Below, one piece after another: positions 2,551 through 34,778 of a stretch of 64,000 nucleotides of DNA. Every line of letters begins with the position of its first letter. Positions within the stretch are counted from its first letter, which is position 1. The notes below the pieces were generated by a model. The model worked only from the letters and a program-made list of their open reading frames with translations. It made no database searches and was not told the DNA's origin. The DNA is from an uncultured Gammaproteobacteria bacterium (lineage in GTDB: Bacteria > Patescibacteriota > Microgenomatia > UBA10105 > UBA927), in NCBI GenBank assembly GCA_964449585.1, contig CAYUZE010000001.1, positions 140,142 to 204,141 on the forward strand. Direction: 5' to 3'. A program made the position numbers and the translations under genes.

Positions 2551-2724
2551 CAGTAGTCTCAAGGTTCTACCCGACCCGTTCACTACCCCTGAATGGGTTG
2601 ATCTGGATTGCTAAACTATCCTCAACTCAACATTTTTTGTTTTAAGAGCCCAGAGAAGGTTGATGGGCCTCATTACAGGACGCAGCTTTTGACAGATATT
2701 ATTTTGAAATGAAAATACTTTGAG

Positions 2725-4050
2725 TTATTTTATACGAAGCTGTCGGTTGTGGAGGATAAATTTTGTTTTGATAACCGAGAGGATTTCCTGACGTTCTTCT
2801 GTTGATCCATGTTGGAGCGTGTGGAGCAAATACCGCTTTACCATATCGTGACTTATGTGCTTGAAGGTTGCGTAGTCTATTTTTTGCAAGTTTCCCTCTA
2901 AATATTGTTGCTTTAGTACGTCTGAACGAAGTTCATGGAATTGGTCTATTTTGTGTTTGAGCTTATGGGCAAGTTCCAGTTCGTTAATCTTTATATCGTC
3001 GAGGTATGCGATTAATTGCTGAATGAGGTCTGCTTCGGTGATGTACGGCTCATCACAGTCATAATCGATAGATCGGGTGCAGTGGTAATAGACGTGTTTA
3101 TTATATCCGCCATATTTAAGCTTCTTGTACCGCTCTTCTCCGGTTACTGACGCACCGCAACTTCCGCACTTACAAAGGGTTTTGAATGGAAATGTTTTTT
3201 GATGCCACGTTTTTGGAGGAATCGTGAGTTGCAGTTGCACCTTTTCCCAAAGCGCTTTGGTAATAAGTGGTGGATGTTGTCCTTTGTAGATAATTCCGTG
3301 ATATTCAAAGTCACCATAATAGAAACGACTGTTGAGCGCGGTATAGATTTTGCTTAAGGGAATCGATTTATCGTTCTTGGTCCGGAAGCCAATCGTATCC
3401 AGCCATTTTTTGATTGTCCGTCCGCTTTGGCCTTGCTCGCCAACACGGATAAACATTTGTTTGATGAATGGTGCACGTTCTTCATCAATAATAATTTTGC
3501 TGATCCGGTTGTTTGTAAGGATGTTTTTATATCCGATCGGAGCGACACCCGGCCGCCATCCCATTTCACACTTTGCCTTGAGTCCGCGTTTTACGTTAAT
3601 GCCTCTGTTGTCGTTTTCTAGTTTCGCCTGTGAACAGAGAATCATGAGAAGAAACTTTTCGTTGGGATTATTACCGAACACCTGTGAATATGTTCGGATT
3701 GTCTGGAGTTTTCCCTGATCCATAAGATCGACGAGTCGCCCCAGATCACCTGCATTTCGCGATAGTCGGTCCGGTGCCCAGGTGAGAATGCCGGAAAATA
3801 ACCCTTGTTCAATATCCGTAAGCATCTGATTAAATACTGGTCGGGCGAGGGAAGCTTTGGCTGAATGGCTTTCCTGCCGAATCTCCGCGATGGTAATCTG
3901 TTCGCGGGCAGCCAGATCCGTCATTTCCTTAATCTGCGAATCAATGGACATTGCTTGCCGTTCGTCCGATTCGCTCGATTTCCGCGCATACAAACAGTAT
4001 TCAATAGTAGGGGTTTGTGCTGCTATAGGACTGTTAGTTGTATTGGTCAT
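2725..4050 (-). CDS. Large serine recombinase (resolvase-domain site-specific integrase)
   Basis: N-terminal resolvase catalytic motif YARKSSESD, recombinase domain, C-terminal zinc ribbon CKCGSCG...YYHC; sits about 175 nt from the tRNA cluster. Confidence 0.85.
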   Translation of the reverse strand: MTNTTNSPIAAQTPTIEYCLYARKSSESDERQAMSIDSQIKEMTDLAAREQITIAEIRQESHSAKASLARPVFNQMLTDIEQGLFSGILTWAPDRLSRNAGDLGRLVDLMDQGKLQTIRTYSQVFGNNPNEKFLLMILCSQAKLENDNRGINVKRGLKAKCEMGWRPGVAPIGYKNILTNNRISKIIIDEERAPFIKQMFIRVGEQGQSGRTIKKWLDTIGFRTKNDKSIPLSKIYTALNSRFYYGDFEYHGIIYKGQHPPLITKALWEKVQLQLTIPPKTWHQKTFPFKTLCKCGSCGASVTGEERYKKLKYGGYNKHVYYHCTRSIDYDCDEPYITEADLIQQLIAYLDDIKINELELAHKLKHKIDQFHELRSDVLKQQYLEGNLQKIDYATFKHISHDMVKRYLLHTLQHGSTEERQEILSVIKTKFILHNRQLRIK

Positions 4051-4117
4051 ATCAAGGAGGAACAGTACCGCGAAGGGGTGGTGAAGTCTAGCGGATGAAT
4101 CTTATAAGGACAGGAGG

Positions 4118-4909
4118 TTATATATCTAGTGATAGCATTACCGGATTGTGGTCGCTGTATTTTCTAATTTCGGGGCTATCAATCACGTCGCATTTAACAA
4201 AGTGCTTCGAGAGAGATTTGCTTATGAAGAAATAGTCATTTTGCCACGGTATGTTGCTTTTAGGATATCGAAGCGTTTGGACAAAGTTTTTGTTTCCAGT
4301 GAGTTCGTAACAGTTTTCAAGTCCAAGATCTTTAAGTCGTTCAAAGAATATTCGGTGTGATTGGCCTCCAAACTGCTGGTCAAATTGCAAACTTGCATTA
4401 AGATCTCCGGCGAGAATGATATTTCTTTTGCCGCTCATGTGGCCCTTTAATATTCCGGTAAGATCGGAAATAATTCGGTGAAGGTTTGGAATGGAATAAC
4501 CGATATATCCAATTTTATCCATCCTGCCATATAGGGAGATAAACGTAAAAAGGGTGTTGTTAATATTTGTGTTTGCTATGACACAAAGCTCTTTGTGTCC
4601 ATTCCTATTCCATTCGGGGATTGAAGCCTCTGGTTCTTCTGTAAGCGAATAGGCTCCCGAATATATCCCCGCGCCCCACGATTTTCTCCCATTAGATACT
4701 CCTGCGGGATGCCATATGAAATTCTGATTATTTTTTATAAACGTCGGTTTATGTGCCTCTTGAAAGAGGAGGACATCAGCTCCTAACTGAGTGAAATATC
4801 TCCATGACGAGTCGAGAAGCTTTTTGTGGCTCCAATACGCCATATTCCATGTCATAACTTTCATTTCCATATCAAGGCCAATGATATGAGAAACGTGGCA
4901 TGAAAGCAA
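4118..4909 (-). CDS. Endonuclease/exonuclease/phosphatase (EEP, DNase I-like) family protein
   Basis: MKVMTWNM...ADVLLFQE N-terminal motif and C-terminal SDHNPV motif; true start may be the internal Met at 4870. Confidence 0.6.
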   Translation of the reverse strand: MLSCHVSHIIGLDMEMKVMTWNMAYWSHKKLLDSSWRYFTQLGADVLLFQEAHKPTFIKNNQNFIWHPAGVSNGRKSWGAGIYSGAYSLTEEPEASIPEWNRNGHKELCVIANTNINNTLFTFISLYGRMDKIGYIGYSIPNLHRIISDLTGILKGHMSGKRNIILAGDLNASLQFDQQFGGQSHRIFFERLKDLGLENCYELTGNKNFVQTLRYPKSNIPWQNDYFFISKSLSKHFVKCDVIDSPEIRKYSDHNPVMLSLDI

Positions 4910-4979
4910 ATGAGATTTGAGGCTAATTGCTCGCTTTAAGCTAGTGGAATTGATCGCTCGCAGCTATCACGATTAGCTT

Positions 4980-5195
4980 ATGTTTTTGAGTGTAAATCAG
5001 ACAAAGGAGCGACTGGGTAAGCGCATTCAGAAAGCGCGTAAAAGCATGGGATTCACCCAAGAAGAACTAGCGGAGAAGATTCGTATAAGCAGGACTCATA
5101 TGGGTCACATTGAGCAAGGAAGAAAATCTCCGTCAATTAAGGTGATGACAAGAATTTCGAAAGTGCTTAGGGTTAAGCTATCGGACTTGTTTTAG
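4980..5195 (+). CDS. XRE-family helix-turn-helix transcriptional regulator
   Basis: GFTQEELAEKIRISRTHMGHIEQGRKSPS is a typical HTH_XRE pattern; 71 aa. Confidence 0.7.
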   Translation: MFLSVNQTKERLGKRIQKARKSMGFTQEELAEKIRISRTHMGHIEQGRKSPSIKVMTRISKVLRVKLSDLF

Positions 5196-5196
5196 T

Positions 5197-6642
5197 TTAT
5201 GCAATAAAGAATTGAAAAGGCGGTTTATTATCCAATTCCTGTATTTTGAGCACTAAAAGCGAAAACGCATCCGCTAGGTCATCATGTTTTTCGATGCCAA
5301 ACCCCGTTAATTGCTGTATAAGTTCTTCAGCTCCTTTTTTAGGAAAGAGTATATTTCCCTGTTTAATAAGGTGGGTAATGAGGGCTAGCCGTGCTCGTTT
5401 ATCCTGACCCGACACTTTTACGCCCTCGGCAGGGATGTTATTTGCTTGAAGATGTTGTATGAGCGATCCCTGGTATCCAACTTCTTCGATATATAGCATG
5501 GTGAATTTTCCATTTCCTAGGTTTTTTGAGAGATTTTTTGCCTGTTCAAAAGTTTGAGGAAAATCAAGTCGGTTGTTTATAGGAAAAGGAAGTATATATA
5601 CTCGTAAATCACTTTTGTACCCGAATACTTTAGCGGATACCATTGCTGTACAGTCTGCTGAATCTTTTTGTGAGATGGCAAGATCAACTCCGGTGGCAAT
5701 AAATCGAAATCCGTTCGTTGTTTCAGGTGGCAATTGGTCATAATAGTGTATCCATTCCGGGTGCACCAATCTGTCAGCGTCCGATATGATTCGTAGGAGA
5801 TACTCTCGATACCATGCGGATTCCGATCCAATGCTCAGGTGTAGTTTTTCAATTTCGGCGAGCGTCGGGAATTTATCCTGCCACGCGATTTCGTTTTCTT
5901 TACTTAATAGCGGATACGCGTAGAATTGTCCATGCAACTTTTCTTCATCAATTGAGTGTTTTAGTCTCATGAGTAAACTATCCTCATGGAGGAGGTTTCC
6001 TACGATAATTATTTTGGTATATTGATCACCAATCGGAAGAACGTCTCCTGTTAACCACTGAAACGTCTTGTCTCGTCCTTCGCGCGTTTTTACGCTCGTT
6101 AAATCCTCAACGTCATCGCAAATGACCAAATCGGGTCTATGTTCTCCATGTCGCGCTCCACGTATGCTTTGCTCTGATGAGGCAATAGTGATTCTTGCTC
6201 CGTAATTTGAGAGTACAATAGTGCTTGATCCCCATTCATCACTAAATTCTTCGAACGGACCGATGTCTGATTTGAGCAGATCGTTGGTTTCCAGCTCACG
6301 TTTAATATTTGCCATGTGTAATTTAGCTTGTGATTGTGTCTGACACAGGATCAGGACAAACTTTTTTTGCTGGATGCCCACAATTGACCAGATGACGTAC
6401 GACAAAGTCATAAGTGTAGATTTGCCGGAACCTCTAAAAGCAACCAGAACAAAAAGTTTGTTAGTAATATCTTCGGTAATACGAAACATTTCGTGATGGA
6501 AAGGAGCAAACGGGTATGTGATGTAGTGGTGAAGATATATTGTGAAGAACCAATAATGACTGTTGCGTGCGAGTGCCCGGCGTACCGACCTCTTTTGCTT
6601 GATTTCTTCTAATTCGTTGGGCGTTAAATGCGTGGTGGTCAT
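5197..6642 (-). CDS. terL: Phage terminase large subunit
   Basis: Walker A FRGSGKST, ATPase motif VICDDVED, C-terminal RNase H-like nuclease region (IATGVDLAIS...); overlaps the upstream small-subunit gene by 4 nt. Confidence 0.8.
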   Translation of the reverse strand: MTTTHLTPNELEEIKQKRSVRRALARNSHYWFFTIYLHHYITYPFAPFHHEMFRITEDITNKLFVLVAFRGSGKSTLMTLSYVIWSIVGIQQKKFVLILCQTQSQAKLHMANIKRELETNDLLKSDIGPFEEFSDEWGSSTIVLSNYGARITIASSEQSIRGARHGEHRPDLVICDDVEDLTSVKTREGRDKTFQWLTGDVLPIGDQYTKIIIVGNLLHEDSLLMRLKHSIDEEKLHGQFYAYPLLSKENEIAWQDKFPTLAEIEKLHLSIGSESAWYREYLLRIISDADRLVHPEWIHYYDQLPPETTNGFRFIATGVDLAISQKDSADCTAMVSAKVFGYKSDLRVYILPFPINNRLDFPQTFEQAKNLSKNLGNGKFTMLYIEEVGYQGSLIQHLQANNIPAEGVKVSGQDKRARLALITHLIKQGNILFPKKGAEELIQQLTGFGIEKHDDLADAFSLLVLKIQELDNKPPFQFFIA

Positions 6643-7055
6643 TTTTCCTCCGTGTGTTCCGCTGGCGCTAAGGCAGCCAGTTTTAATGCTTTCGACACCA
6701 ACTCCTCTTGTTCCGGTGTTAATACTTCGTTGTCTGCTTTTAACCGCGCCGTTACTTCAACTTTGGTTGCATAGAGTGGATGGTGATGTTTGAGCCAGAA
6801 GATGATGGCTGTGAGATTTTTGTCCCGTATCGCACTCATAAGTTGGGATTCAGCCATATCGTTTACCAGCGACGCCCCTTCGATAAGCGCATCATTGGCC
6901 TGTTTAGCAAACATTTCGTCCTGATTGGTCCATCGGTAATAGGTGGCTCGCGCAATGCCGACTTTTTCGCATGCAATTTGAATAATAGGCGTACGTTTAA
7001 GTTGCTCAAGTAACAACGACTTATTTTTCTGTTGTCGTTTTTGGATTGTTTTCAT
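6639..7055 (-). CDS. Terminase small subunit-like HTH protein
   Basis: N-terminal HTH (IACEKVGIARATYYRWTNQD); 138 aa; translationally coupled immediately upstream of terL. Confidence 0.5.
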   Translation of the reverse strand: MKTIQKRQQKNKSLLLEQLKRTPIIQIACEKVGIARATYYRWTNQDEMFAKQANDALIEGASLVNDMAESQLMSAIRDKNLTAIIFWLKHHHPLYATKVEVTARLKADNEVLTPEQEELVSKALKLAALAPAEHTEEK

Positions 7056-8389
7056 AGGATTCGTTTAGCCTTTTGACCAGTAAGTTTTTCCCACCGGTTA
7101 CGGATGACTTCCGCGTAGACTGGTGATTTTTCCATAAGAAAGCAGCGCCGTTTCAGCTTTGTAGCAGCTATAAGGGTGCTGCCTGATCCTCCAAAAGGCT
7201 CCACGATTAGGTCTCCGCGCTTCGTGAGCACCTTGATGTACGGGATAAGGATTTCGAGAGGCTTGGTGCCAAAAATAATACCTTGCCCGGAACTTTTTTC
7301 ATCCGCGGCTACATGTTCTATGAAATCGGTAGGCTGATACTTCTTGCCTTTCTCATACCCTTCCCAATGAGGTTTTCCGGATATAGCATAGAGAGCCGTT
7401 TCGTATTCATTCTGTAAACCATCTTCTTCGGTCTCGTTATTGAATTCAACGTCGGTATTTTTGCTCGCTCCCACCATGGCAATATCATGTTTGCTAAAGA
7501 ATTTATATTTAGCTGAAAATCCTTGTACACGGTTTGGCAAATGCCACACAAGCATATTCTTTATCTTCCAATGTGCTTCCATAGCTGACCAAATAGTGCG
7601 GATATTTTTCCAGTTTTCATAGACGATGATAGAAAAATGTTCTTTTTGTACTTTGGCTATATTATTCATCCAGAGTTCCGTGAAGTTGTCCGGTAGCACA
7701 TCGGTTTCAAGATATCTGCGATCACGCTTGGCCCCAAAACCAGTAACAGCATTTCCATGTTTCTTTTTACCCTTGAGATAGTCGAGGATGTATGGCGGAT
7801 CGGTAAAACACATATCTGCCTTTTCTTCATCCATAAGCTTTAATACATCTGCTTCAACCGTGGAATCGCCACACATCATGCGGTTATCGCCTAGTGCATA
7901 AACGTCTTGTTTTTGTATCGATATTTTGTCGATTTTGAGCTTGTGCAGTTCTTTTTGAAGATCAAATTCCTCCGGTGTTTCGTCGATGCCAAATATGTCA
8001 TCCATTTCTTCGCTGGTAAATCCGATGTCGGTAAGCAGTGATTGGTCGAATTTCGCGAGTTTACTCCAGTCCCAATAACCGGTGTTTCTATTTAACCGGA
8101 TATTTAATTCCTTCTCTCGTTCAACATCTGGAATCGTGAGATATACGACAGGGATGGTTTTGTACCCCAAGTCTTTCGCAACTTTAAGGCGCATGTGGCC
8201 ACCTATGACAATATTCTGTCTATTAGGTGCGTTGTTAACGATAATGGGATCAACAAGGCCATACCTCTTTACACTCTCCGTAAGTTGTTTGAGGGCATCC
8301 GGGGTCCATTTCCGTGGGTTATAGATAGCTGCATTTAGGCCAGTTATTTGGATATATAGAACCTGTAACTTAGAGTCGATCGTTTGCAT
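7052..8389 (-). CDS. ParB-like nuclease domain fused to a DNA methyltransferase (N6A/N4C, beta class)
   Basis: ParB N-terminal motif VDPIIVN...GGHMRLKVAKDLGY; methylase motif IV CFTDPPY and motif I EPFGGSGST; the track ORF extends to 8503, and the start is chosen at Met 8389 to avoid overlap. Confidence 0.8.
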   Translation of the reverse strand: MQTIDSKLQVLYIQITGLNAAIYNPRKWTPDALKQLTESVKRYGLVDPIIVNNAPNRQNIVIGGHMRLKVAKDLGYKTIPVVYLTIPDVEREKELNIRLNRNTGYWDWSKLAKFDQSLLTDIGFTSEEMDDIFGIDETPEEFDLQKELHKLKIDKISIQKQDVYALGDNRMMCGDSTVEADVLKLMDEEKADMCFTDPPYILDYLKGKKKHGNAVTGFGAKRDRRYLETDVLPDNFTELWMNNIAKVQKEHFSIIVYENWKNIRTIWSAMEAHWKIKNMLVWHLPNRVQGFSAKYKFFSKHDIAMVGASKNTDVEFNNETEEDGLQNEYETALYAISGKPHWEGYEKGKKYQPTDFIEHVAADEKSSGQGIIFGTKPLEILIPYIKVLTKRGDLIVEPFGGSGSTLIAATKLKRRCFLMEKSPVYAEVIRNRWEKLTGQKAKRIL

Positions 8390-8453
8390 GTTAAGAACAT
8401 TGTAGGGAGAAGCGTTGATGCAAACGATAGAGGTCTTACAAGGTGTTAATAAC

Positions 8454-9149
8454 CTATTTTTGAGGATTAAAACGTTTCTCCATTTTATTTTTGAACGTGG
8501 CAATGTCCGCTGCTGTGCAATTCTTTATTTCTGGAAGTCGTTTGGCTATTTCACGTTGTGGTATGTTTTGATCTTCAAGATCACGAATCTTAATATATGT
8601 GCTCACGTTCGTAAATACACGTCTACGTATGGGAACTTTTGTGGTCATTTTTGATTGGTATTGTTTCACAGTTTCCCAAATATCCTCAATATCCTTGATA
8701 GCAGTGTCTTTGTTTATTTGTATTGATAATTTGGTCACAACTTGTTGATGAATAGGTAATTTGGGATCGTCTATTTGAACATCAATATCTATTCCACCAT
8801 AAGGAGTATTTAGCTTGCTCCTTTCGTCCATTAGGTAAAAAAGGAGATCGATATACCATCGCTCATCGAGATTGAATTCACTAGCGAATTTCTCTAATTG
8901 TTCTATGACGAATTTATTAGGAGGTAGTAAGTCGCGGCTTGATTCAAAAGCGAAGCGATTTCTAGTATCTAAGGTTTCGTTTTTAAATAAAGCGTGATAC
9001 CACTGGAGTGCTAATCTTTGTAAAAATCCGCTTTTGGGTATACCCAGCGCAACTCGGTATTTTTCTGTTGCTTTTTGAAACCGCTTCATGCGGACGAGGA
9101 TAGATGCAAGATCAGACCAATATTGTTCGAGATCATTGCTAGTTTTCAT
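8454..9149 (-). CDS. Hypothetical protein (231 aa)
   Basis: Long ORF only; no recognisable motif. Confidence 0.4.
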   Translation of the reverse strand: MKTSNDLEQYWSDLASILVRMKRFQKATEKYRVALGIPKSGFLQRLALQWYHALFKNETLDTRNRFAFESSRDLLPPNKFVIEQLEKFASEFNLDERWYIDLLFYLMDERSKLNTPYGGIDIDVQIDDPKLPIHQQVVTKLSIQINKDTAIKDIEDIWETVKQYQSKMTTKVPIRRRVFTNVSTYIKIRDLEDQNIPQREIAKRLPEIKNCTAADIATFKNKMEKRFNPQK

Positions 9150-9196
9150 AGCTTGATTATAGCGTAAGGATAATATATTTATGCAGGATTTAGCGG

Positions 9197-9202
9197 TATA
9201 AT
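9197..9202 (+). promoter_or_regulatory. -10 TATAAT about 7 nt upstream of the res ATG at 9210 (possibly a leaderless transcript)
   Basis: TAGCGGTATAATGCAGTGTATGG; the first ATG of the track ORF (9201) lies inside the hexamer. Confidence 0.35.
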
Positions 9203-9209
9203 GCAGTGT

Positions 9210-12182: not shown

Positions 12183-12187
12183 TCATT

Positions 12188-14653: not shown

Positions 14654-14655
14654 TG

Positions 14656-15267: not shown

Positions 15268-15330
15268 ATTTCTACTTATTGTATAATTCTACCAAACGGT
15301 GTATAAATATGCAAGTGGGTTGACTGACTG

Positions 15331-15354
15331 CCTCCGAACCCAGGAGGTTTTTTT
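15331..15354 (+). terminator. Intrinsic terminator-like hairpin CCTCC-GAACCCA-GGAGG followed by T7, in the lexA/15365 divergent region
   Basis: 5-bp GC stem, 7-nt loop, seven Ts; lies about 45 nt downstream of a TATAAT (15283-15288) and 10 nt upstream of the 15365 start. Confidence 0.4.
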
Positions 15355-15364
15355 GTAGAAAAAG

Positions 15365-15643
15365 GTGGTGATCAAGATGATATATGCAATTACATATGAT
15401 TTGAACAAAACAGGGCAGGATTATCCAGCCTTGTATCAAAAGATACAAAGTTTAGGAGAGACATTCCATGCGCTGCAGAATTTGTGGGTGTTAAGTACCA
15501 CATATAGCGGGGCAACTGTGCGCGATGAGATTCGTAAAGCGGTAGATGCGAATGATCATATATTTGTCGCACAGCTATACAAAGGCAGTTATTCAGCATG
15601 GATGCCGGTGACGGCGCATGACTGGTTGGAAGCGAGGTTATAA
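15365..15643 (+). CDS. Small hypothetical protein (92 aa); its pattern resembles the Cas2/VapD ferredoxin-like fold
   Basis: MIYAITYDL...GETFHALQNLWVL...DHIFVAQL aligns by eye with the Cas2 pattern M-L-V-YDV...GxRVQNSVFEC...DSLRIY; no Cas1 or CRISPR array nearby. Confidence 0.4.
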   Translation: MVIKMIYAITYDLNKTGQDYPALYQKIQSLGETFHALQNLWVLSTTYSGATVRDEIRKAVDANDHIFVAQLYKGSYSAWMPVTAHDWLEARL

Positions 15644-15645
15644 AT

Positions 15646-15885
15646 ATGACAAATTACAACGTTGTTAATAATCCGAACGGTGGTTGGGATGTAAAAAGAG
15701 ATGGTGCGGAGAGAGCAAGTGTGCACGCGGATACGCAAGGTGAGGCAGAATCTCAAGCGAAGGGTTTTGCTGGGAATTCAGGTGGTGGTGAGGTGCGTAT
15801 TCAAGGGAGAAACGGTCAGTTTCGTGACAGCGATACGGTTGCACCTGCACATGACCCATACCCGCCACGAGATAAAAAGCATTAA
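15646..15885 (+). CDS. DUF2188 domain protein
   Basis: VVNNPNGGWDVKRDGAERASVHADTQGEAESQAKGFAGNSGGGEVRIQGRNGQFRDSD matches the DUF2188 pattern (GGWxVK...S..H.TK.EA...A...A...G.E..IH..DG.I). Confidence 0.65.
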   Translation: MTNYNVVNNPNGGWDVKRDGAERASVHADTQGEAESQAKGFAGNSGGGEVRIQGRNGQFRDSDTVAPAHDPYPPRDKKH

Positions 15886-15897
15886 GGAAATGGTGAT

Positions 15898-16245
15898 ATG
15901 AAATCAACAATAAATACAGAAGGTAAAAGATATACCGTTGAAGTATTTATGATGAAACCTCTCGAAGGCGTCTATCGGTTCGGAGTTCAAATTTGGGGAG
16001 GCAGAGAAATATTCCCCTTCTCCATAAGGCTGCCCAAAAAGTTTATTGAAGATGAAATTGATGCAAATAATGATAAAGGATATTTGGAAAATCTCACAAT
16101 GAGAGTGGTGGTGGATCACCTAAAGGATATTCTTTCCCTCGATCGAAACGGTGTGATGGCAAATCTTATTTATTGGTTTAAGGATGCAAAGTATAAATAT
16201 GATGAGGAGGTGAAAGATGGAAATTCTTACAAAACCGCTCAATAG
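15898..16245 (+). CDS. Hypothetical protein (115 aa)
   Basis: ORF with AGGAAA-type ribosome-binding site; no family recognised. Confidence 0.4.
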   Translation: MKSTINTEGKRYTVEVFMMKPLEGVYRFGVQIWGGREIFPFSIRLPKKFIEDEIDANNDKGYLENLTMRVVVDHLKDILSLDRNGVMANLIYWFKDAKYKYDEEVKDGNSYKTAQ

Positions 16246-17524
16246 CTTCAGTTTCGATGATATCGTGTCTTTCCAAAAACAAAATCATGCCGAAGGCATT
16301 GAGTTAGATTATAAAAAAGTATTCCCTGATAAAGGATTGGCAAAGATTATCGCATCGTTTGCGAACACGAGAGGTGGGATGATAATTCTTGGAATAGAGG
16401 AAGATGAAAAAACTGGGTTACCCGTCAGCGCCAACGGCATTGTTCCTGATAAACATGATGACAGAGTATATCAGTACGTTGGAAATATTAATCCGATCCC
16501 AAAGGTTGTATGTCACACAACCAACGAGGTTCATGGTAAGGTATTTGTTTTGATCCGCGTATTTGAAGGCGATGAAACCCCATATTATGTTTATAACGAT
16601 TCAAATATATGGATAAGAACAGGGAATATAAGTAAGCCGATCGATATTGTTTCGCCAGAGGGCGCAGAGCTTCTATATAAGAAAAGTGAACGCGCAGAAA
16701 TTGGAAGGATACACAATTTAGACTCAGCTGAAGCCAATTTTCAGGCATTTATAAAGAGAGCGGAAAAACAACGAGTACGCGAGATCGAAATTGAAAAGGA
16801 GAACTACGAAATAAAGAAGGCTCACAATGAAGACGGGGATAGTTTTCCACCATTTAAATCCCAAATTTCTCAGTCGCCAGTCGGGAAGAATGTTTCGTTG
16901 TTAAAGATAATTGTGCAACCTTATTACCCACGTGGCGAATTTGTTCGTCCGTTGGATATTGAACCTATTATTGTTGACTCAAGAAGTCAAAATAACGTTT
17001 ATGAATTTCCAGCCAATAGAATGTACGAGTCTATTAAAGAGGGAATGATCTTTTTTGACTGGTCGCGACGTGATGGGGAAATACAATGTCAGCAAATATT
17101 TGCTAATGGGTTGGGATACAGCATCCATGACGTTTTACGTCCCATACCCGACGGACAATTGGTAACACACTTGGGTTGGTTTGCGGGAGAGCTTTATATA
17201 ACCTTGTCTGGAATGAGGAAGATATTAGAAAAATTTGGCTATCAGGGAGCGCTTATTGGTAAAGTGTCAATTGAAAACATAGAGGGTGTAATAATAAATC
17301 CAATAATAGAAAGAATGTTTCCTGGAGATACGAAGCCTTCCGTTTTTGCTCATCGAGCTTGGCCGTTAATACTCGATACAAGGATTTTATCCGAAACAGA
17401 CAAGCTTAGGGACTTTGTAACGGAATTGGTAAGGGATATTCACTGGGCGTTTGGCTATAAAGACGTTTCAAGGCAAATTTCAGCGAAATATCTAGTTGAT
17501 AAAGGGTATCTAAGAGAGACTTGA
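16217..17524 (+). CDS. Schlafen-like AlbA_2 (divergent AAA / putative DNA-binding) domain protein, 435 aa
   Basis: N-terminal FDDIVSFQKQNHAEGIELDYKKVFPDKGLAKIIASFANTRGGMIILGIEED matches the AlbA_2/Schlafen core; strong SD GAGGAGG; about 300-aa uncharacterised C-terminal region. Confidence 0.6.
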   Translation: MEILTKPLNSFSFDDIVSFQKQNHAEGIELDYKKVFPDKGLAKIIASFANTRGGMIILGIEEDEKTGLPVSANGIVPDKHDDRVYQYVGNINPIPKVVCHTTNEVHGKVFVLIRVFEGDETPYYVYNDSNIWIRTGNISKPIDIVSPEGAELLYKKSERAEIGRIHNLDSAEANFQAFIKRAEKQRVREIEIEKENYEIKKAHNEDGDSFPPFKSQISQSPVGKNVSLLKIIVQPYYPRGEFVRPLDIEPIIVDSRSQNNVYEFPANRMYESIKEGMIFFDWSRRDGEIQCQQIFANGLGYSIHDVLRPIPDGQLVTHLGWFAGELYITLSGMRKILEKFGYQGALIGKVSIENIEGVIINPIIERMFPGDTKPSVFAHRAWPLILDTRILSETDKLRDFVTELVRDIHWAFGYKDVSRQISAKYLVDKGYLRET

Positions 17525-17573
17525 GATTCGATGACTTTTGACTTAATAAACAAAAGGCTGTGTAATAGTTAGC

Positions 17574-18329
17574 ATGTCCCAATACTACAACCCAAATCGA
17601 ATTCGTAATCGATATGAAGCAGGCTCAGCAGATGCCTTCCGCTTGAGCCGGTCGAAGATTGACCTGTATATTAATTGTCCACGATGTTTCTATCTTGACC
17701 GCAAGCTCGGAGTGGGCCAGCCGCCGGGATATCCGTTTAACCTGAATTCAGCCGTCGATAAACTTCTGAAGAAAGAGTTCGACATTCATCGCGCCCACGG
17801 TACTAGGCACCCGCTCATGGAAAAATATGGCATAGATGCCGTGCCACTTGTGCACGAAAAGATAGAAGAATGGCGAGATTCATTGAGAGCCGGTATTACG
17901 CATAGGATAGATAGCACCAATGTTGTGATAACCGGAGGTGTGGACGATGTATGGGTAAATCCGGCTGGTGAGTACATTATCGTCGATTATAAATCCACAT
18001 CTAAAGACGCAGAGGTGACACTCGATGCCGATTGGCAAATCGGATACAAACGTCAGATGGAAATTTATCAGTGGTTATTCCGGAAGAATGGTTTCAAGGT
18101 CTCCTCAACCGGCTACTTTGTCTACTGTAATGGAAATACAGACAAAGAAGCATTTGACGCCAAGCTGGAATTTGATATCAAAATTATTCCGTATATTGGC
18201 GACGACTCATGGGTAGAAAAGACAATTTTAGAAGCCATAGAATGTCTCAAAGGCGAAGCGCTATCTGCGTCCGGAATAGATTGTGATTTTTGTAAGTATC
18301 GGAAAGCAGTAAAGCAATTTGAACAGTAA
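17574..18329 (+). CDS. Cas4-like PD-(D/E)XK nuclease with a 4Fe-4S cysteine cluster (RecB/DUF83 family)
   Basis: N-terminal CPRC and C-terminal C-x8-C-x2-C (CLKGEALSASGIDCDFC) cysteines; D...IVDYKST (D-x-K) nuclease motif. Confidence 0.7.
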   Translation: MSQYYNPNRIRNRYEAGSADAFRLSRSKIDLYINCPRCFYLDRKLGVGQPPGYPFNLNSAVDKLLKKEFDIHRAHGTRHPLMEKYGIDAVPLVHEKIEEWRDSLRAGITHRIDSTNVVITGGVDDVWVNPAGEYIIVDYKSTSKDAEVTLDADWQIGYKRQMEIYQWLFRKNGFKVSSTGYFVYCNGNTDKEAFDAKLEFDIKIIPYIGDDSWVEKTILEAIECLKGEALSASGIDCDFCKYRKAVKQFEQ

Positions 18330-18331
18330 AT

Positions 18332-19723
18332 ATGCCCAAAAAAACATTAGCCAAATTTGTTTACGACAAGCTTCAAGAGGGTAAGTGGCCGGGAGTCACT
18401 CTTGATGAAAAAAAACAATCCGTTCGTATTCCAAGTGGAGATATACTCATTTCAAAAAAGGGCAAATACCATTTTTATTTCTATTATTTTTCAATAGACA
18501 CGCGTCAATTTAATTTAAGAAGTGGGTACAGTGAGCTGATTTTTCCAAAGAACTTGGATATAAGAAAAGTTCTTTATTTTAAGACAAACGGGAATTACAA
18601 GATTAATAATGAGCGCCAGTTTAAGAAAGTAGTTAATCCCCTTGGTAAACATGTAAATAATATCAAACTCTCTACCACCTCAACAAATTTAAAATTCTAT
18701 AAAGATTCCCTGATTCTTCCGATCCGCGTGTTTAAGGATACGTTAAAAGACGCTGAATATATTAATACACGAAGTACTGCATACAGAAACTCCGCAGAGA
18801 ATTATTTGTCAAATATAAAATCCCACAAATACAGTAACAAGATTAAACGTAGAACAACATACATGGAGAAAGGCGAGTTTCGTTTTTTAGTAGACCGCTT
18901 ATATCTTAAATCAAAAGAAAACAAAAGTGATTATCTGAAATATCTCGACGAATATGACCTCAAAGGGATCGAGGAATTACTTAGTGAGTTATTAAGGCAT
19001 GACGTTCTCTCAAAGGATTTTTTGAGAGTACTTAATGATTTTTTTATTAAAGAGAAACTCAAAGATATTATTGCGTTAGGAAGAGAAATACTCGCACTAA
19101 AAACTACAAATCTTACTATCGCACCAGCACAACAAGTTATCACTAAACTTGGGTTGACGGAGGCGGGCCAGTTAGAGTCGCTTTGGCAAAAGTATTTTGA
19201 AAATTATCTCTTGTATTTGATATTTACTTATAAGAAAATTTTTCCAAAGGTGGTGCTGAAGAATATAGATGGAGATAAAAAATATCCTGACTTTATTGGA
19301 ATTAATCATTATAACGGCTTGGATGTTATAGAGATTAAAACCCATCTCAAAAACGCACTTATGTGGGATGGTAGTCATGAAAATTTTTATTTTTCTCCCG
19401 AAATGAGCAAGGCCATAGTTCAGACGACAAACTATATGGACGCAATTGTGCAGGTGAGATTTCAAAACGCAGATGATCAAACTAAAATTACCCAATCTAC
19501 CGACGAAGAAAATTTATATCACCCAAGAGGGATTATAGTGATTTCATCACAAGCAAAACTTACTACGAAAATGGGACAGGACGAAAAACTAAGAAGGGAT
19601 TTTACGAAATTAAGAAATAGTTTACACAACATTGAAATTATCACTTTTGATGAAATACTTAATATTGCAGATGAATATATAAAGAACATCGTGCCCGAGG
19701 AGGAAAATGAACGAACAAATTGA
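18332..19723 (+). CDS. Putative Shedu-like (DUF4263) PD-(D/E)XK nuclease, 463 aa, very AT-rich
   Basis: C-terminal PDFIGINHYNGLDVIEIKTH (D...E-x-K) then PRGIIVISS...NIEIITFDEIL; variable N-terminal domain; start 2 nt after the upstream stop. Confidence 0.45.
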   Translation: MPKKTLAKFVYDKLQEGKWPGVTLDEKKQSVRIPSGDILISKKGKYHFYFYYFSIDTRQFNLRSGYSELIFPKNLDIRKVLYFKTNGNYKINNERQFKKVVNPLGKHVNNIKLSTTSTNLKFYKDSLILPIRVFKDTLKDAEYINTRSTAYRNSAENYLSNIKSHKYSNKIKRRTTYMEKGEFRFLVDRLYLKSKENKSDYLKYLDEYDLKGIEELLSELLRHDVLSKDFLRVLNDFFIKEKLKDIIALGREILALKTTNLTIAPAQQVITKLGLTEAGQLESLWQKYFENYLLYLIFTYKKIFPKVVLKNIDGDKKYPDFIGINHYNGLDVIEIKTHLKNALMWDGSHENFYFSPEMSKAIVQTTNYMDAIVQVRFQNADDQTKITQSTDEENLYHPRGIIVISSQAKLTTKMGQDEKLRRDFTKLRNSLHNIEIITFDEILNIADEYIKNIVPEEENERTN

Positions 19724-20021
19724 TCAGCGAATTCGGAATATTCTTAGAGATCTTCATAAAGCCCACGAACGATCGATGCAGTTTAATGCCAAAGAATTGA
19801 AGCCAGGGGAACCAATCGTTCCGATGGACTTATATGATATGGCTTTAGCTTACGATGAAGAAGAGCGTCAACTTTTGTATTTGGAACTTGCTTACAGTGA
19901 AAAATATCCTCAACAATACTCAAAGGATCAAGTTGATGATATAAATAAACGAATAAACAAGTTGACTCATGATATCAGGGCTTGGCAGAATCGACAGATT
20001 CCGAGCGAATATAAAGAATAA
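19707..20021 (+). CDS. Hypothetical protein (104 aa)
   Basis: ORF overlapping the upstream gene end, coupled; no family recognised. Confidence 0.35.
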   Translation: MNEQIDQRIRNILRDLHKAHERSMQFNAKELKPGEPIVPMDLYDMALAYDEEERQLLYLELAYSEKYPQQYSKDQVDDINKRINKLTHDIRAWQNRQIPSEYKE

Positions 20022-20037
20022 ATTGGCATTTAGTCAT

Positions 20038-20451
20038 ATGGAATCATTCATTCTATTTTTTGTCATCTTAGCGCTTCACACTTATGTGTTTATGTTCCAA
20101 CGCGCGACGCTTACGATAGCGAGAGTTATAGAAATACTTCCTATTGCTCAGGTTCAGGCTATTTTAACTCCTAATTGGGTTGGTGCTATCGGCTGGATCA
20201 GTACGATTGGGTTGTATGCATCACTGGTATATATTTGGCTTCAGCATGGGTTGTTATGGGCGCTCGGTGCTTTTGTTGCTAGCCATCTTTTAACGGCAGT
20301 AATTCCTATTCCGTCGGTATATTTCTATAATCTTGTTCTTCGACATCTCACCAAAGAAATTAGTCGTGAAAAGGATAACGAAAAGAAAGAGATATTTGTG
20401 GAGCTTCAGGAAACCGTAAAGAAGATCAGTAAAAATTACAGGGTTACTTGA
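20038..20451 (+). CDS. Small integral membrane protein (3-4 TM helices)
   Basis: Hydrophobic helices FILFFVILALHTYVF, VGAIGWISTIGLYASLVYIWL, LLWALGAFVASHLLTAVIPI; start set at Met 20038 (track ORF starts at 19969). Confidence 0.4.
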   Translation: MESFILFFVILALHTYVFMFQRATLTIARVIEILPIAQVQAILTPNWVGAIGWISTIGLYASLVYIWLQHGLLWALGAFVASHLLTAVIPIPSVYFYNLVLRHLTKEISREKDNEKKEIFVELQETVKKISKNYRVT

Positions 20452-20489
20452 TTACTGATTTTTCCATTATTCTTCTGCGGTTACTCGAT

Positions 20490-20936
20490 ATGATTCTCAA
20501 CAAGACAGTGCTGATATTAGAAGACGATTTGCGAACGCTTTCCAAGATATTGGAGCGGTTAGCAGTTGTTGAAGAAGATCAGCCGTATGATTTTGCACTT
20601 ATCGTGCTTACAAGCCACCTTCAGGTGCAGGAGTATATAAACGATCACTCAAAAACCTCATTTGACATTATTCTTCTTGATCGGGATTGTAAGCTCGGTG
20701 GGTCATTCCATGTTCTTGATCTTGAGCGACTTGGCCCGGAAAAAGTGATTGCTATTTCTTCAGTACCTAAATGGAACGAAGAAGCGAAGAAGCGTGGTGT
20801 CACGCGAGTGGTACCAAAAGACTATCGCAACCTTGACGCATTTGCTTCAAAAGTTGCCGACGAAGTGTCAGCCATGCTTAAAGGATCCCAGGTAACAGAG
20901 GCGAGTATGCACCATATTTTTGATAAAGAGAATTAA
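20490..20936 (+). CDS. Stand-alone CheY-like receiver domain protein
   Basis: TVLILEDD acidic pocket, DIILLDRD phospho-acceptor region, AISSV...K; no output domain. Confidence 0.45.
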   Translation: MILNKTVLILEDDLRTLSKILERLAVVEEDQPYDFALIVLTSHLQVQEYINDHSKTSFDIILLDRDCKLGGSFHVLDLERLGPEKVIAISSVPKWNEEAKKRGVTRVVPKDYRNLDAFASKVADEVSAMLKGSQVTEASMHHIFDKEN

Positions 20937-21472
20937 GTAAGGAGAGGCGCGAGAGCCTCTCGTATCTTTGTTTCATTGTAAGTATTCGTCACAGGAAACG
21001 AGATGAAACGTATACCTGCTTTTGTAAGAACATTTTCGATCTTCTGATCTCTATTTCTTCGATTGAATTGCAGGTGTGACTTGCCATTCAGCTCTATCGC
21101 AAGAACGGGAGACATTGCTTGTTTATCAAATAACACAAAGTCTAAAGATAGATGATCAATATGTCGGTAGAGGTTGTCATGGTCTTTGACGTCATTTTTG
21201 ACATCGAGAATGGTTGCAAGTCGTGCCTGGGGGTAGATGTAATATTTGTCGCCATAGAGTTTTATAAGCACATCAAAGAGCTGTCGTTCATCAGCGCGCA
21301 TGATAGACGGCTTTTTAGTGAAAAATCCTCGGGCATCCGCAAGATCCAACAGTTCATCATGTATTTTGTGATATTTATCTTTGTAATAGATCGCTATCCA
21401 TGCAAACAGGACGATAAAGCCGATAAGGAGAGCGAGGGCAGTATTATTGAGCGTGGCAGTAAGTATTGGCAT
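20933..21472 (-). CDS. DUF2726 (NERD-like) domain protein with N-terminal membrane anchor
   Basis: HLSLDFVLFDKQAMSPVLAIELNGKSHLQFNRRNRDQKIENVLTKAGIRFISFP matches the DUF2726 core; N-terminal TM LALLIGFIVLFAWIAIYY. Confidence 0.55.
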   Translation of the reverse strand: MPILTATLNNTALALLIGFIVLFAWIAIYYKDKYHKIHDELLDLADARGFFTKKPSIMRADERQLFDVLIKLYGDKYYIYPQARLATILDVKNDVKDHDNLYRHIDHLSLDFVLFDKQAMSPVLAIELNGKSHLQFNRRNRDQKIENVLTKAGIRFISFPVTNTYNETKIREALAPLLT

Positions 21473-21496
21473 ACATTTACTATAGATCTTCCGAGA

Positions 21497-21502
21497 GTAT
21501 AA
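21497..21502 (+). promoter_or_regulatory. -10 TATAAT upstream of the 21517 gene
   Basis: AGAGTATAATCAAAGGGATTTTTATGG: hexamer, AAAGGGA SD-like sequence, ATG at 21517. Confidence 0.3.
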
Positions 21503-21516
21503 TCAAAGGGATTTTT

Positions 21517-22605
21517 ATGGATTACCTTCATCCAAAATCCTATTACGACGACCAGTATGATCTCCATACCATTGAGCAGTCTCTGGAATACTGGAGTGTC
21601 GGAAAGAAGATGCAGGAGAAACGGAGTGAATTCAAAGGGACGGACGAAGAATTTCAGCGGGAAACCCTGAAAGTCGTTAGCTACATGACCAACATTCTTA
21701 AGATTGAACGATTCCGTCATCGGACAGAGCAGATCGGGGAATGGATGGAAAGGGATAGGAAGATTCAGGAAGTGCTGGATATCGCAACACCGCCGGACGA
21801 TATCCGGTGTACGGCATGCTCTTCAGACACCAATATTACCTCCAGAGATCTCTTCGATGCTTACGACAAGCATCCGTACGTCCTATTTATGTTCGAGTGT
21901 ATAAAGTGTCATAAGCGACAGGCACTCTATGCAGACGGGCGACCATGGCACTACGAGCCATCCCGGTGTCCTAAGTGTAGTGAAGCGTTAGAAAGCACCG
22001 TGAAACACGGGAAGGATACCCTGACGACGATCTACACCTGTACGTCGTGTTCGTATTCCCGAAAGGATGTGGATGACTTTGCCAAATCCCGCAAGGAACG
22101 GGAAGCGAAGGAGAAACGGGATACAGAGTTACTGACCAAATACCGAAATGAGTTCTGTTACAGCGAGAAAGACGGGCAGGAAGCAGTACAGAGTATGGAT
22201 ACAATCGTTCGGGTTGTGGATGAGATCAAGGCCAAGGAGAAAAAGGAGGCAGATCCGGTGTATCAGCAGGCGATGAAGCTCAAAAAGATCAGTATCGTAG
22301 ATATGGAGAAGCTCATTGTGGATGCAGTAACCCCTCAGAAATATATCCGGTTTACCCTTGGGCAACCGATCATGGGACGATTTATTGAGGTTTCATTCAC
22401 CGTGCAGGAGGGGGATAGCAGTCGGCATGAGTACGACAGCCGGAATGAGCTCAGGAAACTTATCATTAAGGCGTTGGAAGGAACCAACTGGCGGCTCATG
22501 AGCGATGGAATAACCTTCCGGCTGGGCGTGTTAGCCGGACGCCTAAAGGGGTTAGAAAACCCCGACGATATAGCCGATTCACTTAAGCCCGAAACCGGCT
22601 CGTAA
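21517..22605 (+). CDS. Hypothetical multi-zinc-ribbon protein (four CxxC pairs)
   Basis: CTACSS...CIKCHK...CPKCSE...CTSCSY; the track ORF begins at 21466 and the start is set at Met 21517 using the promoter/RBS context. Confidence 0.45.
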   Translation: MDYLHPKSYYDDQYDLHTIEQSLEYWSVGKKMQEKRSEFKGTDEEFQRETLKVVSYMTNILKIERFRHRTEQIGEWMERDRKIQEVLDIATPPDDIRCTACSSDTNITSRDLFDAYDKHPYVLFMFECIKCHKRQALYADGRPWHYEPSRCPKCSEALESTVKHGKDTLTTIYTCTSCSYSRKDVDDFAKSRKEREAKEKRDTELLTKYRNEFCYSEKDGQEAVQSMDTIVRVVDEIKAKEKKEADPVYQQAMKLKKISIVDMEKLIVDAVTPQKYIRFTLGQPIMGRFIEVSFTVQEGDSSRHEYDSRNELRKLIIKALEGTNWRLMSDGITFRLGVLAGRLKGLENPDDIADSLKPETGS

Positions 22606-22607
22606 TC

Positions 22608-22766
22608 TTACTCATCTCGCCACACGTATTTGTATCCGATTGGCGCGATAGGCTTGATCGGCCGAATTGGTTTTATCGGCTTTATCGGTTTGATGGGTCG
22701 AATAGGCGGGATCGCTTTAATGGGTTTAATTTTGAATGGATTATCTTTCACTAAAGTCCACGACAT
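22608..22766 (-). CDS. Unannotated 52-aa proline-repeat peptide MSWTLVKDNPFKIKPIKAIPPIRPIKPIKPIKPIRPIKPIAPIGYKYVWRDE
   Basis: Hand translation of the minus strand; AAGGAGG (22771-22777) 4 nt before the ATG; stop TAA at 22608-22610; starts 13 nt after the HNH stop codon; (K/R)PI triplet repeated about 9 times. Confidence 0.45.
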   Translation of the reverse strand: MSWTLVKDNPFKIKPIKAIPPIRPIKPIKPIKPIRPIKPIAPIGYKYVWRDE

Positions 22767-22778
22767 ATTACCTCCTTA

Positions 22779-23060
22779 TTAAATTTTTGCAGTTACCGGA
22801 CAGACTAATGGTCCATCTTGTCTGGATGCGTTATTGTACCAGTGCAACGGTCGTAAGTTGGACAGCATATCAGAACCACCCGGAATGATATGGTCGATTT
22901 CCCAACCGTTGTTAAACTGTTCGGATCGGACACCATATTGATTCCTCGCGATGTATGCGCCACATACGTCCTTGCGTATCTGGTTTGGATCTTTCCCTGG
23001 GACAATTATGCCCTTTGCCCAAACTTGCTGGACGATCATGTCGTCGTATTGTTGTGCCAT
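22779..23060 (-). CDS. Small HNH endonuclease (93 aa)
   Basis: C..Y...WEIDHIIP...NLRPLHWYNN HNH motif; GGAGGTG ribosome-binding site before the ATG. Confidence 0.7.
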   Translation of the reverse strand: MAQQYDDMIVQQVWAKGIIVPGKDPNQIRKDVCGAYIARNQYGVRSEQFNNGWEIDHIIPGGSDMLSNLRPLHWYNNASRQDGPLVCPVTAKI

Positions 23061-23473
23061 GTGTAAGTCACCTCCTTTCGGTGGAAAAAAATTCTGACCC
23101 TAAGCGGAGAAGACCGAGGACGTGTAGTGGGATTACCTCTTGCCCGTTCTCGCTTACCCCGCCTTTGGCCGGTCGGAATAAGCATTTCTCTTCATTGAAA
23201 TACCTGAGTGGAGTGTAAGATTAGCAGACGATTCAGTCAACTGCTAATTTATATATCAAACACTATCAATTTTAAGATTCAGCCACAAAGGAAAGTAGAG
23301 ACACTCCCTTTCTGTGGTGTCTCATTTGTCTCATTTAGCCTCGGCTATGGGACACAATCTGGTACAATACCTTCTAGGAGTATAGAGGGACTATAGGGAC
23401 ATTAGGGTTCCAGACCCGTATGCTCCGCAAAATCAAAATGTTGTCCTGCCCGAAGCTGAGAGGGAACGGGATA

Positions 23474-23500
23474 ATAACCTAACTTTTTAGGTTATATAAT
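23474..23500 (+). promoter_or_regulatory. Perfect palindrome ATAACCTAA-cttt-TTAGGTTAT overlapping a -10 TATAAT upstream of the 23517 gene
   Basis: 9-bp inverted arms with a 4-bp spacer (23474-23495); TATAAT at 23495-23500; ATG at 23517. Confidence 0.4.
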
Positions 23501-23516
23501 AATTTATATGTAACAT

Positions 23517-24608: not shown

Positions 24609-24687
24609 TATACAAATTGTGAACTCAGGATTGAAAATTACGGTCTTGAAATAGGTTATAACACGGTAAATTGTTCTCCGCATCAGC

Positions 24688-24891: not shown

Positions 24892-24931
24892 GTCTCAATC
24901 AGATCCTCCACTACCCTTTCAGCAAAGCATT

Positions 24932-34769: not shown

Positions 34770-34778
34770 GATAGTTCA

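Follow-up and report, generated by a model that had tools for sequence, protein, structure and literature searches.

An integrated element with its own terminase and no recognised virion genes at a tRNA-Ser gene of a Patescibacteria genome: a probable phage satellite

Among the described phage satellites, the P4-like elements, the PICIs (phage-inducible chromosomal islands) and the Staphylococcus aureus pathogenicity islands (SaPIs) encode at most the small terminase subunit (TerS) and use the large terminase (TerL) of their helper, and the satellites of Streptomyces carry TerS and TerL together with capsid and portal genes. The PICMIs (phage-inducible chromosomal minimalist islands), which are packaged as concatemers, also have, to our knowledge, at most TerS and use the helper's large terminase. 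The capsid-forming PICIs (cf-PICIs) possess their own TerS and TerL, and hence package only their own DNA (PMC10690885). The PICI-like elements (PLEs) of Vibrio cholerae and the serine-recombinase VEIMEs (virion-encapsidated integrative mobile elements) are satellites of about 10-20 kb that have a large serine recombinase and act against phages (PMC6002521; PMC9618062). Here we analyse a 64-kb stretch of Patescibacteria DNA from a Gottesmanbacteria-like genome (contig CAYUZE010000001.1 of assembly GCA_964449585.1, positions 140,142 to 204,141), referred to as the window, in which an island of 20,877 bp (2552-23428) is inserted at the 3' end of a tRNA-Ser gene with the anticodon ACU. This island is very probably a discrete mobile element of a conserved Patescibacteria family, and it is probably a phage satellite that spreads with its own terminase and would depend on a helper. 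All coordinates are positions in the window, and handles of the form Lnnn denote related loci retrieved from databases.

The two ends of the element, along with the tRNA gene that it adjoins, are as follows.

2468-2551, plus strand: host tRNA-Ser, anticodon ACU (ARAGORN; Rfam tRNA, 50.7 bits)
2552-2724, no strand: integrase-proximal conserved arm, the P' side of attP, beginning AGTAGTCTCAAGGTTCTACCCGACCCGTT (comparison of the arm across loci)
23298-23355, no strand: near-invariant non-coding block, a candidate pac or other protein-binding site (cross-locus comparison)
23405-23428, no strand: P half of attR, a tRNA 3'-end mimic with the sequence GGGTTCCAGACCCGTATGCTCCGC (local alignment)

The tRNA reads ...CCCTCTCCGC at its 3' terminus, the last base being 2551, and this 3' end, with the core CTCCGC at 2546-2551, is the B half of attL. 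Directly 3' of CTCCGC lies an arm of about 170 bp, which occupies this position in four loci, namely the window, L008, L009 and a remnant in L022, and is adjacent to the integrase in L008 and L009. At the right end, the core CTCCGC recurs at 23423-23428 within the mimic; when the tRNA end was aligned locally with the rest of the island, the mimic (GGGTTCCAGACCCGTATGCTCCGCA, 23405-23429) was identical to the 3' end of tRNA-Ser(ACU) at 19 of 25 bases. About 140 bp preceding the mimic are kept in L022 and L004, and beyond CTCCGC the sequences of the window, L004 and L022 diverge. Since conservation of the far end halts at CTCCGC and the arm starts after CTCCGC, the element was delimited as given above. 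An earlier note on this DNA had guessed the right boundary to lie between 23.1 and 23.5 kb, in agreement with its placement at 23428, and had the integrase next to the tRNA cluster, where the arm and integrase indeed adjoin tRNA-Ser(ACU). Its suggestion that the island might extend to about 27 kb did not hold, there being no second tRNA-like or att-like site in 23.4-27.6 kb, and 'highly repetitive' overstated the nature of 23.1-23.5 kb, where the repeats are limited to short tandem 9-mers and small inverted ones; part of this stretch is, however, a cis-element kept nearly unchanged in the family. The AT-richness that it described was confirmed for the element as a whole (41.2% GC, against 47-49% in the flanks), but the 18.3-19.7 kb region has 33.5% GC and not about 30%.

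The same note had proposed a comparison with a relative lacking the insertion, and this comparison did define the ends. A scan of the genome collection with the flanking penicillin-binding protein (PBP) as query returned a single relative, L022, a metagenome-assembled genome of Candidatus Gottesmanbacteria, which shares the gene order of the window to either side of the element (tmRNA, ComF-like gene, thiamine pyrophosphokinase, tRNA-Ser GCU/UGA/ACU, a 171-aa gene, tRNA-Arg, tRNA-Ser(CGA) and PBP). In L022 the site is empty: tRNA-Ser(ACU) (14116-14202) is followed by a NUDIX-like open reading frame (ORF), named from its translation alone, and then by the 171-aa gene. Since the ACU site is found there without an insertion, the unusual ACU tRNA is a host gene and not a part of the element. 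CTCCGC is all that attL, attR, the empty attB sites and an attP-like junction described below have in common, and the flanks switch exactly there. As judged by these comparisons, the sites have the short shared core and the hybrid attL and attR that characterise serine-integrase attachment. The predicted attP is ...GTATGCTCCGC followed at the junction by AGTAGTCTCAAGG..., and the restored attB would be ...GCCCTCTCCGC followed by AAAATCAAAATGTTG....

When JGI metagenome contigs were searched for a mimic terminus with the arm beginning within the next 8-20 nt, a sole match was obtained, namely L023, in which the far-end block, mimic, CTCCGC and arm are contiguous at 725-762, as in attP. The predicted junction is thereby confirmed. 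This junction sits within a contig of 446 kb, and therefore a tandem integration explains it equally well, and a free circle is not proven; the simplest reading would be that a second element had integrated into the attR of the first. Past the far end of L004, a span of 2 kb (2531-4429) holds the mimic three times in series, which agrees with repeat insertion. Together, L023 and L004 suggest that insertion into attR may occur repeatedly, giving rise to tandem arrays and scars.

The core genes of the element, in their order from the tRNA, are listed below.

2725-4050, minus strand: large serine recombinase (integrase), 441 aa (PF00239 1.5e-19, PF07508 2.9e-11, PF13408 8e-9; phrog_95 1.4e-63)
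4980-5195, plus strand: XRE-family helix-turn-helix (HTH) regulator (PF01381 6e-15)
5197-6642, minus strand: TerL, terminase large subunit (phrog_38 2.6e-78, residues 15-471)
6639-7055, minus strand: TerS-like small DNA-binding protein (PF13022, 32.5 bits, cutoff 27.9; TerS PHROGs, several of them at about 1e-7)
7052-8503, minus strand: ParB N-terminal domain fused to an N6/N4 DNA methyltransferase (PF02195, PF01555; phrog_498 1.2e-77)
8454-9149, minus strand: orfA, first gene of the packaging operon (synteny; fast-evolving, HTH-like C-terminus)

The domain order of the integrase (Resolvase, Recombinase, Zn_ribbon_recom) is the architecture of large serine recombinases, and homologues with 47-93% identity were found at the same end of the element in 10 related loci. 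The XRE gene is divergent from the operon of the integrase and an exo/endonuclease/phosphatase (EEP) family gene, and convergent with TerL; it is present in 9 of 14 clustered loci, with its orientation varying in some. ATGA overlaps are found at the junctions of ParB-methyltransferase with TerS and of TerS with TerL, and the three genes are therefore taken to be translationally coupled, as the earlier note had claimed; all of its gene calls (serine integrase, EEP, XRE, ParB-methyltransferase, TerS, TerL, Type III-like restriction-modification, LexA, DUF2726, HNH and others) were also reproduced by ORF listing and profile searches. Comparison with homologues places the probable true start of the ParB-methyltransferase at 8389. 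In every member, and in both copies where the gene is in tandem, the Walker A, Walker B and coupling motifs of TerL and its three acidic nuclease motifs are either unchanged or show conservative substitutions. When the window was compared with L008, L009, L001 and L004, the integrase, ParB-methyltransferase, TerS and TerL had proportions of nonsynonymous differences (pN) of 0.05-0.28, with synonymous differences (pS) saturated at 0.64-0.96; for TerL, these were 0.08 versus 0.74-0.76. The core genes are thus under strong purifying selection.

The AlphaFold2 model of the TerS-like protein is all-helical, with a confident N-terminal HTH and a pLDDT of 69. A Foldseek search of this model against the PDB returned nothing significant, Sf6 gp1 and a phBC6A51 protein appearing only at E > 2, and a profile search against PDB sequences had no match. 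The product of orfA had no match in Pfam, PHROGs, NCBIfam or the PDB, and its AlphaFold2 model was poor (pLDDT 54). A word search with orfA detected 3 close homologues only; homologues of 231-250 aa nevertheless occupy the same position in L001, L004, L009, L024, L026 and L028.

Among the 22 main ORFs of the element (2552-23428), no virion, lysis or replication family was detected in Pfam or PHROGs, which bears out the earlier statement that capsid and portal genes are missing. An intact tailed prophage was considered and rejected, as these ORFs include no portal, major capsid, tail or lysis genes. None of the ORFs matched a primase or replicase family in Pfam, PHROGs or NCBIfam, and in the remainder of the window there were no phage structural genes where checked. 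The same holds for the family, in that genes for portal, capsid, tail, lysis or replication are missing from every member examined. Among true phages, the nearest are the IMG/VR contigs L018-L021, with TerL sequences 35-44% identical. In L018, L019 and L021, PHROGs matches to portal and head-morphogenesis proteins lie downstream of TerL, with a strongly matched major capsid protein in L018 as well; in L020, a portal homologue was found by tblastn, the sole check made on that contig. When the virion proteins of these phage relatives were used as tblastn queries, no match was found in the element-type loci or the window. In L013, L016 and L031 the integrase directly follows TerL, and the stretch from ParB-methyltransferase to integrase is only about 5.8 kb in L010 and L017. 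The lack of virion genes is judged to be real, as these searches do detect such genes in the phage relatives, and it is not the outcome of decay, pS being saturated with low pN and the TerL motifs intact.

The non-coding block near the far end has the layout GAGACAC..TGTCTCATT TGTCTCATT TAGCC..GGGACAC, with four GAGACA/TGTCTC hexamers. Within the far end, the 22-nt motif GTCTCATTTGTCTCATTTAGCC is exact in the window, L004-L007 and L022, has 1-2 mismatches in L001, L016 and L026, and occurs as a 2-mismatch variant at the far end of L023. The block is better conserved than any protein of the family, and a search of the far-end region against Rfam gave spurious sub-threshold matches only. The non-coding ends surpass the proteins in conservation, which is suggestive of a cis site serving the element itself; the block is a candidate packaging recognition site, and may equally be an origin or a regulatory site.

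The family was examined by comparing TerL and TerS contexts in NCBI genomes (one of them a complete chromosome of 1.61 Mb), JGI and ENA metagenomes, Logan assemblies and IMG/VR. TerL has more than 3,000 relatives in the databases, the best 120 clusters being 64-88% identical, and the named sources among these 120 are Roizmanbacteria, Microgenomates or 'Patescibacteria group' genomes; homologues of the TerS-like protein formed 1,625 clusters, and the complete genome OZ246394.1 carries an element of the family. The family is thus very large and widespread across Patescibacteria; neither this nor the targeting of the tRNA-Ser 3' end by the integrase had been recognised in the earlier note. Its general layout consists of the far end, a first cargo slot, the operon of orfA, ParB-methyltransferase, TerS and TerL (with a divergent S24 repressor in some), the XRE gene, a second cargo slot, the serine integrase, the arm and the tRNA; some members have a second methyltransferase beside the ParB-methyltransferase. 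ORF clustering across 14 loci recovered TerL and ParB-methyltransferase in 13 each, TerS in 11, the integrase in 10, XRE in 9 and orfA in 4, the last being the count at the clustering threshold, to which direct search adds loci. Outside the core and the two ends, gene content is variable, and unannotated ORFs are not conserved between members. The target is tRNA-Ser(GGA) in L008, L031 and the L022 remnant and tRNA-Ser(ACU) in the window and L009, and a distant member adjoins tRNA-Gln. Between the window and L008, the proteins of the element are 76-98% identical, whereas the host PBP is just 42% identical.

Two variants of the layout were observed. Three loci have two full-length TerL genes in tandem (L012, 594-3752; L014, 3809-6938; L015, 2405-5429); the copies in L012 and L014 are about 52% identical to each other and keep all catalytic motifs, and such a pair might adapt the element to two different helper portals. 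In L022, a mini-element of 3.1 kb (5045-8136) at tRNA-Ser(GGA) has both conserved ends and is without integrase or terminase, and is either a non-autonomous derivative or a remnant.

In the window copy, the cargo fills both exchangeable slots, slot 1 beyond orfA and slot 2 in the interval between XRE and integrase.

4118-4909, minus strand: EEP-family protein, slot 2 (PF03372 9e-6)
9201-14653, plus strand: Type III-like restriction-modification pair, slot 1, Res 9201-12182 and Mod 12188-14653 (ResIII domain; PADLOC MTase_III)
14656-15267, minus strand: LexA-like S24 repressor (PF00717, PF01726)
15365-17524, plus strand: small cargo genes (phrog_1090, DUF2188, a 115-aa ORF) and a Schlafen/AlbA_2 protein at 16217-17524 (Pfam, PHROGs)
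17574-18329, plus strand: PD-(D/E)XK nuclease, Cas4-like (PF12705; PADLOC Cas4 1.5e-8)
18332-19723, plus strand: Shedu SduA defence nuclease (PF14082 8e-21; PADLOC SduA 4.8e-17)
19707-20936, plus strand: three small ORFs of 104, 160 and 162 aa (no family match)
20933-21472, minus strand: DUF2726 (nuclease-related) protein (PF10881 5.5e-24)
21466-22605, plus strand: 379-aa protein with four CxxC pairs, zinc ribbons (translation; no family match)
22779-23060, minus strand: small HNH-like endonuclease, 93 aa (phrog_1035, weak, 1.4e-4; H-N-H-type motif in the translation)

The EEP gene is restricted to the closest relatives, L008 and L009, and elsewhere slot 2 holds an OB-fold gene or 7-9 kb of cargo. 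In the restriction-modification pair, Mod matched PADLOC MTase_III at 7.6e-212, and Res has a ResIII domain with weak REase_III matches (5.7e-6) and is 98-99% identical in L008 and L009. S24 repressors, of which the window copy has a LexA-like example, are divergent from the orfA operon in L025 and L028-L030. The 15365-17524 segment is missing from L008, in which the Cas4-like nuclease is 92% and the DUF2726 protein 78% identical to those of the window. The gene at 18332-19723 encodes an SduA with the DUF4263 nuclease domain by which Shedu is recognised, and is the gene of lowest GC (33.5%). The 104-aa ORF is retained in the L022 mini-element (L022 7641-7964, 78% protein identity), and a 36% identical relative of the four-CxxC-pair protein adjoins the ParB-methyltransferase in L011. 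Across the family, the defence cargo comprises Type I and Type III restriction-modification, Shedu, a cyclic oligonucleotide-based antiphage signalling system (CBASS; SMODS with SLATT), an AAA_15 ATPase and a diversity-generating retroelement (DGR), and other cargo includes an MFS transporter with a dehydrogenase, and copper resistance.

The element is integrated, has its own integrase and lacks a complete set of virion genes, and so fits the general definition of a satellite. Genes that would direct DNA into capsids are likewise present, with strong support for TerL and moderate support for the TerS-like protein, and the far-end block is the candidate pac or cos site. In the mechanism that we propose, the integrase would recombine attP, made of mimic and arm, with the 3' end of tRNA-Ser; because attR resembles attB through the mimic, later arrivals could insert there as well, leaving tandem arrays and scars. 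The XRE protein may control the divergent integrase operon, and an S24/LexA-type repressor may control the packaging operon in many members, and induction of the element would accordingly follow DNA damage or helper-phage infection. The element would then excise, probably under XRE and, in many members, the S24/LexA-type repressor. Its own TerS-TerL holoenzyme would recognise an element-specific site, for which the far-end block is the candidate, and package the element DNA into procapsids from a co-infecting helper phage, with the ParB-methyltransferase perhaps assisting the cutting or pre-methylating the DNA as a protection from restriction in the recipient. Together with its defence cargo, the element would be carried by the particle into another cell and would integrate there at a tRNA-Ser gene. 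In its broadest form, the proposal is that candidate phyla radiation (CPR) bacteria, or Patescibacteria, harbour phylum-wide 'terminase-only' satellites, having their own packaging enzyme and DNA methyltransferase and no capsid or replicase, which insert by a serine integrase at tRNA 3' ends by way of a mimic of the tRNA end, and are a main vehicle by which these ultra-small episymbionts exchange defence systems and other cargo; this is about as likely as not.

Several observations weigh against a satellite with its own terminase. Most characterised satellites possess a replication module, and none was found in the element. No described satellite family has TerL without portal and capsid genes, and no helper phage has been identified. 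The TerS assignment is weak, being drawn from low-scoring profile matches together with gene position and synteny. The attP-like junction was absent from IMG/VR under both strict and relaxed patterns, the far-end motif had no exact match there, and circular or encapsidated DNA of the element is not evidenced.

It is conceivable, though unlikely, that the element is instead an integrative defence island, in which TerS, TerL and the ParB-methyltransferase act against invading phages, either by mis-cutting or by competing for phage concatemers or procapsids, and which is transferred by other routes, such as natural transformation followed by insertion through the integrase. Defence systems do dominate the cargo across the family, no evidence of encapsidation was found, and the packaging genes of satellites are known to interfere also with the helper phage (PMC10690885). 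The window itself contains pilB and pilC. Competence and type IV pilus genes are common in CPR bacteria, and this too favours transfer by such a route. However, a terminase with intact sites and a coupled TerS make up the minimal machine for packaging one's own DNA, the superior conservation of the non-coding ends points to a cis site that the element uses, and the roles in defence and in self-packaging are not mutually exclusive.

The island might also be part of a complete virus-like or gene transfer agent-like system, the structural genes of which are too divergent to recognise or are encoded elsewhere in the genome. CPR and phage proteins often defy recognition (PMC6509639), several ORFs of the element lack a family match, and the 64 kb examined belong to a contig of about 222 kb. 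This explanation is nonetheless improbable, since the unannotated ORFs differ between members, some of the loci described above have the integrase directly after TerL, or only about 5.8 kb from ParB-methyltransferase to integrase, the same libraries readily detected portal and head proteins in the nearest phage relatives, and the rest of the window was devoid of phage structural genes where checked. As to a prophage whose structural genes were lost in this genome and whose remainder persisted as a defence island, the order of the ParB-methyltransferase, TerS and TerL block is that of true phages (methyltransferase, TerS, TerL and portal in L018), and the family very probably descends from a phage. 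Yet the lack of a capsid is the conserved condition, shared by all related loci that were examined, which keep both ends and differ in cargo and host. Moreover, strong purifying selection acts on the packaging genes, and a relative (L022) has the site unoccupied. Degradation in this genome is therefore highly improbable, and was rejected on the recurrent capsid-less core, the pN and pS values and the intact active sites of TerL. The earlier note had left the choice between a phage satellite and a degraded prophage; its satellite half is consistent with the satellite-like architecture and the defence cargo, and its other half is contradicted by the same recurrent core, selection and TerL sites.

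Immediately beyond the element lies another block of low GC, which is treated as separate because of the lack of a second att-like site in 23.4-27.6 kb.

23429-26815, plus strand: three orphan ORFs (363, 213 and 371 aa) in a neighbouring block of 40.6% GC, outside the att-bounded element

Its ORFs had no match in Pfam, PHROGs or NCBIfam, and neither L022 nor L008 has the block at this site; the 371-aa ORF appears to have N-terminal membrane helices. Other features of the host loci were also recorded. Two related genomes (window 2468-2551; L022 14116-14202) conserve the target tRNA-Ser(ACU), in which position 34 is A; its variable arm and T stem show compensatory changes, suggesting that it is functional. 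The equivalent position of L008 has a UGA tRNA-Ser of similar sequence. The window starts within a tmRNA gene (1-318, Rfam RF00023), the 5' end of which is cut. Thiamine pyrophosphokinase is split in the window (1089-1370 and 1437-1760) and continuous in L022 (14795-15451), reflecting either a frameshift or pseudogene or an assembly error. Between tRNA-Ser(GCU) and tRNA-Ser(UGA) is an HNH endonuclease ORF (1830-2372, Pfam HNH 4e-5), its 5' end overlapping the first tRNA, of which no homologue was detected in L022, where the matching inter-tRNA gap is 366 bp. Downstream of tRNA-Ser(GGA), the attachment site in L008, L031 and L022, the window has no element; this region (33396-37749), which is not homologous between the window and L022, encodes an HI0933-like flavoprotein, an Eco57I-type methyltransferase and a rhodanese protein. 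Lastly, an IS1595-family transposase and a Replic_Relax-domain gene (46420-48351, GC 35-38%) are inserted between pilB (44517-45965) and pilC (48660-49712).

The genomes of CPR bacteria are tiny, few of their phages are known and hardly any of their mobile elements have been characterised; by what means these bacteria exchange genes and become immune is an open question on which this family bears. The family constitutes a testable vehicle, with exact ends, a predictable pair of attB and attP, a core of five to six genes, and two cargo slots that hold restriction-modification, Shedu, CBASS, DGR, AAA_15 and metal-resistance genes. In the full-text literature, CPR-phage papers included and subscription journals lying outside the coverage, no description of such a Patescibacteria element was found; if it is a true satellite, the family would be the first reported for the phylum, as far as that literature shows. 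The compact serine integrase, the tRNA-end target and the short core could also be of interest for genome engineering.

When set against known systems, the element resembles the cf-PICIs in being integrated and carrying TerS and TerL. The cf-PICIs, however, encode a major capsid protein, protease, portal, head-tail connectors and HNH, borrow only tails and have a tyrosine integrase, whereas the element has a serine integrase and no replication module; an identity as cf-PICI was rejected, as neither the window nor the related element loci had matches to the major capsid protein, portal, protease or connectors. With PLEs and serine-recombinase VEIMEs it shares a large serine recombinase, the lack of virion genes and the character of an anti-phage island, the sequence relationship being considered at the level of the shared recombinase superfamily; host phylum and target site differ (the element using a tRNA 3' end), both VEIMEs and PLEs use the large terminase of the helper, VEIMEs encode at most TerS, and PLEs have replication genes of their own and no terminase. 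The classical PICIs and SaPIs are similar in their repressor-controlled excision, redirection of packaging by their own TerS and accessory cargo, but have tyrosine integrases, a primase-replicase module, genes for redirecting capsid size and no TerL, unlike the element with its TerL, ParB-methyltransferase and serine integrase; an identity as PICI or SaPI was likewise rejected, since the integrase is a serine recombinase and no primase or replicase was matched. The temperate Caudoviricetes L018-L021 have a homologous TerL (35-44%) with identical catalytic motifs and the same order of methyltransferase, small protein and TerL, but there TerL is succeeded by portal and head-morphogenesis genes, and by protease or scaffold and major capsid protein where matched, whereas in the element it is succeeded by XRE, cargo and integrase. 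If it is a true satellite, it would own a whole terminase and borrow everything else, and would thus mark a new point on the spectrum of satellites.

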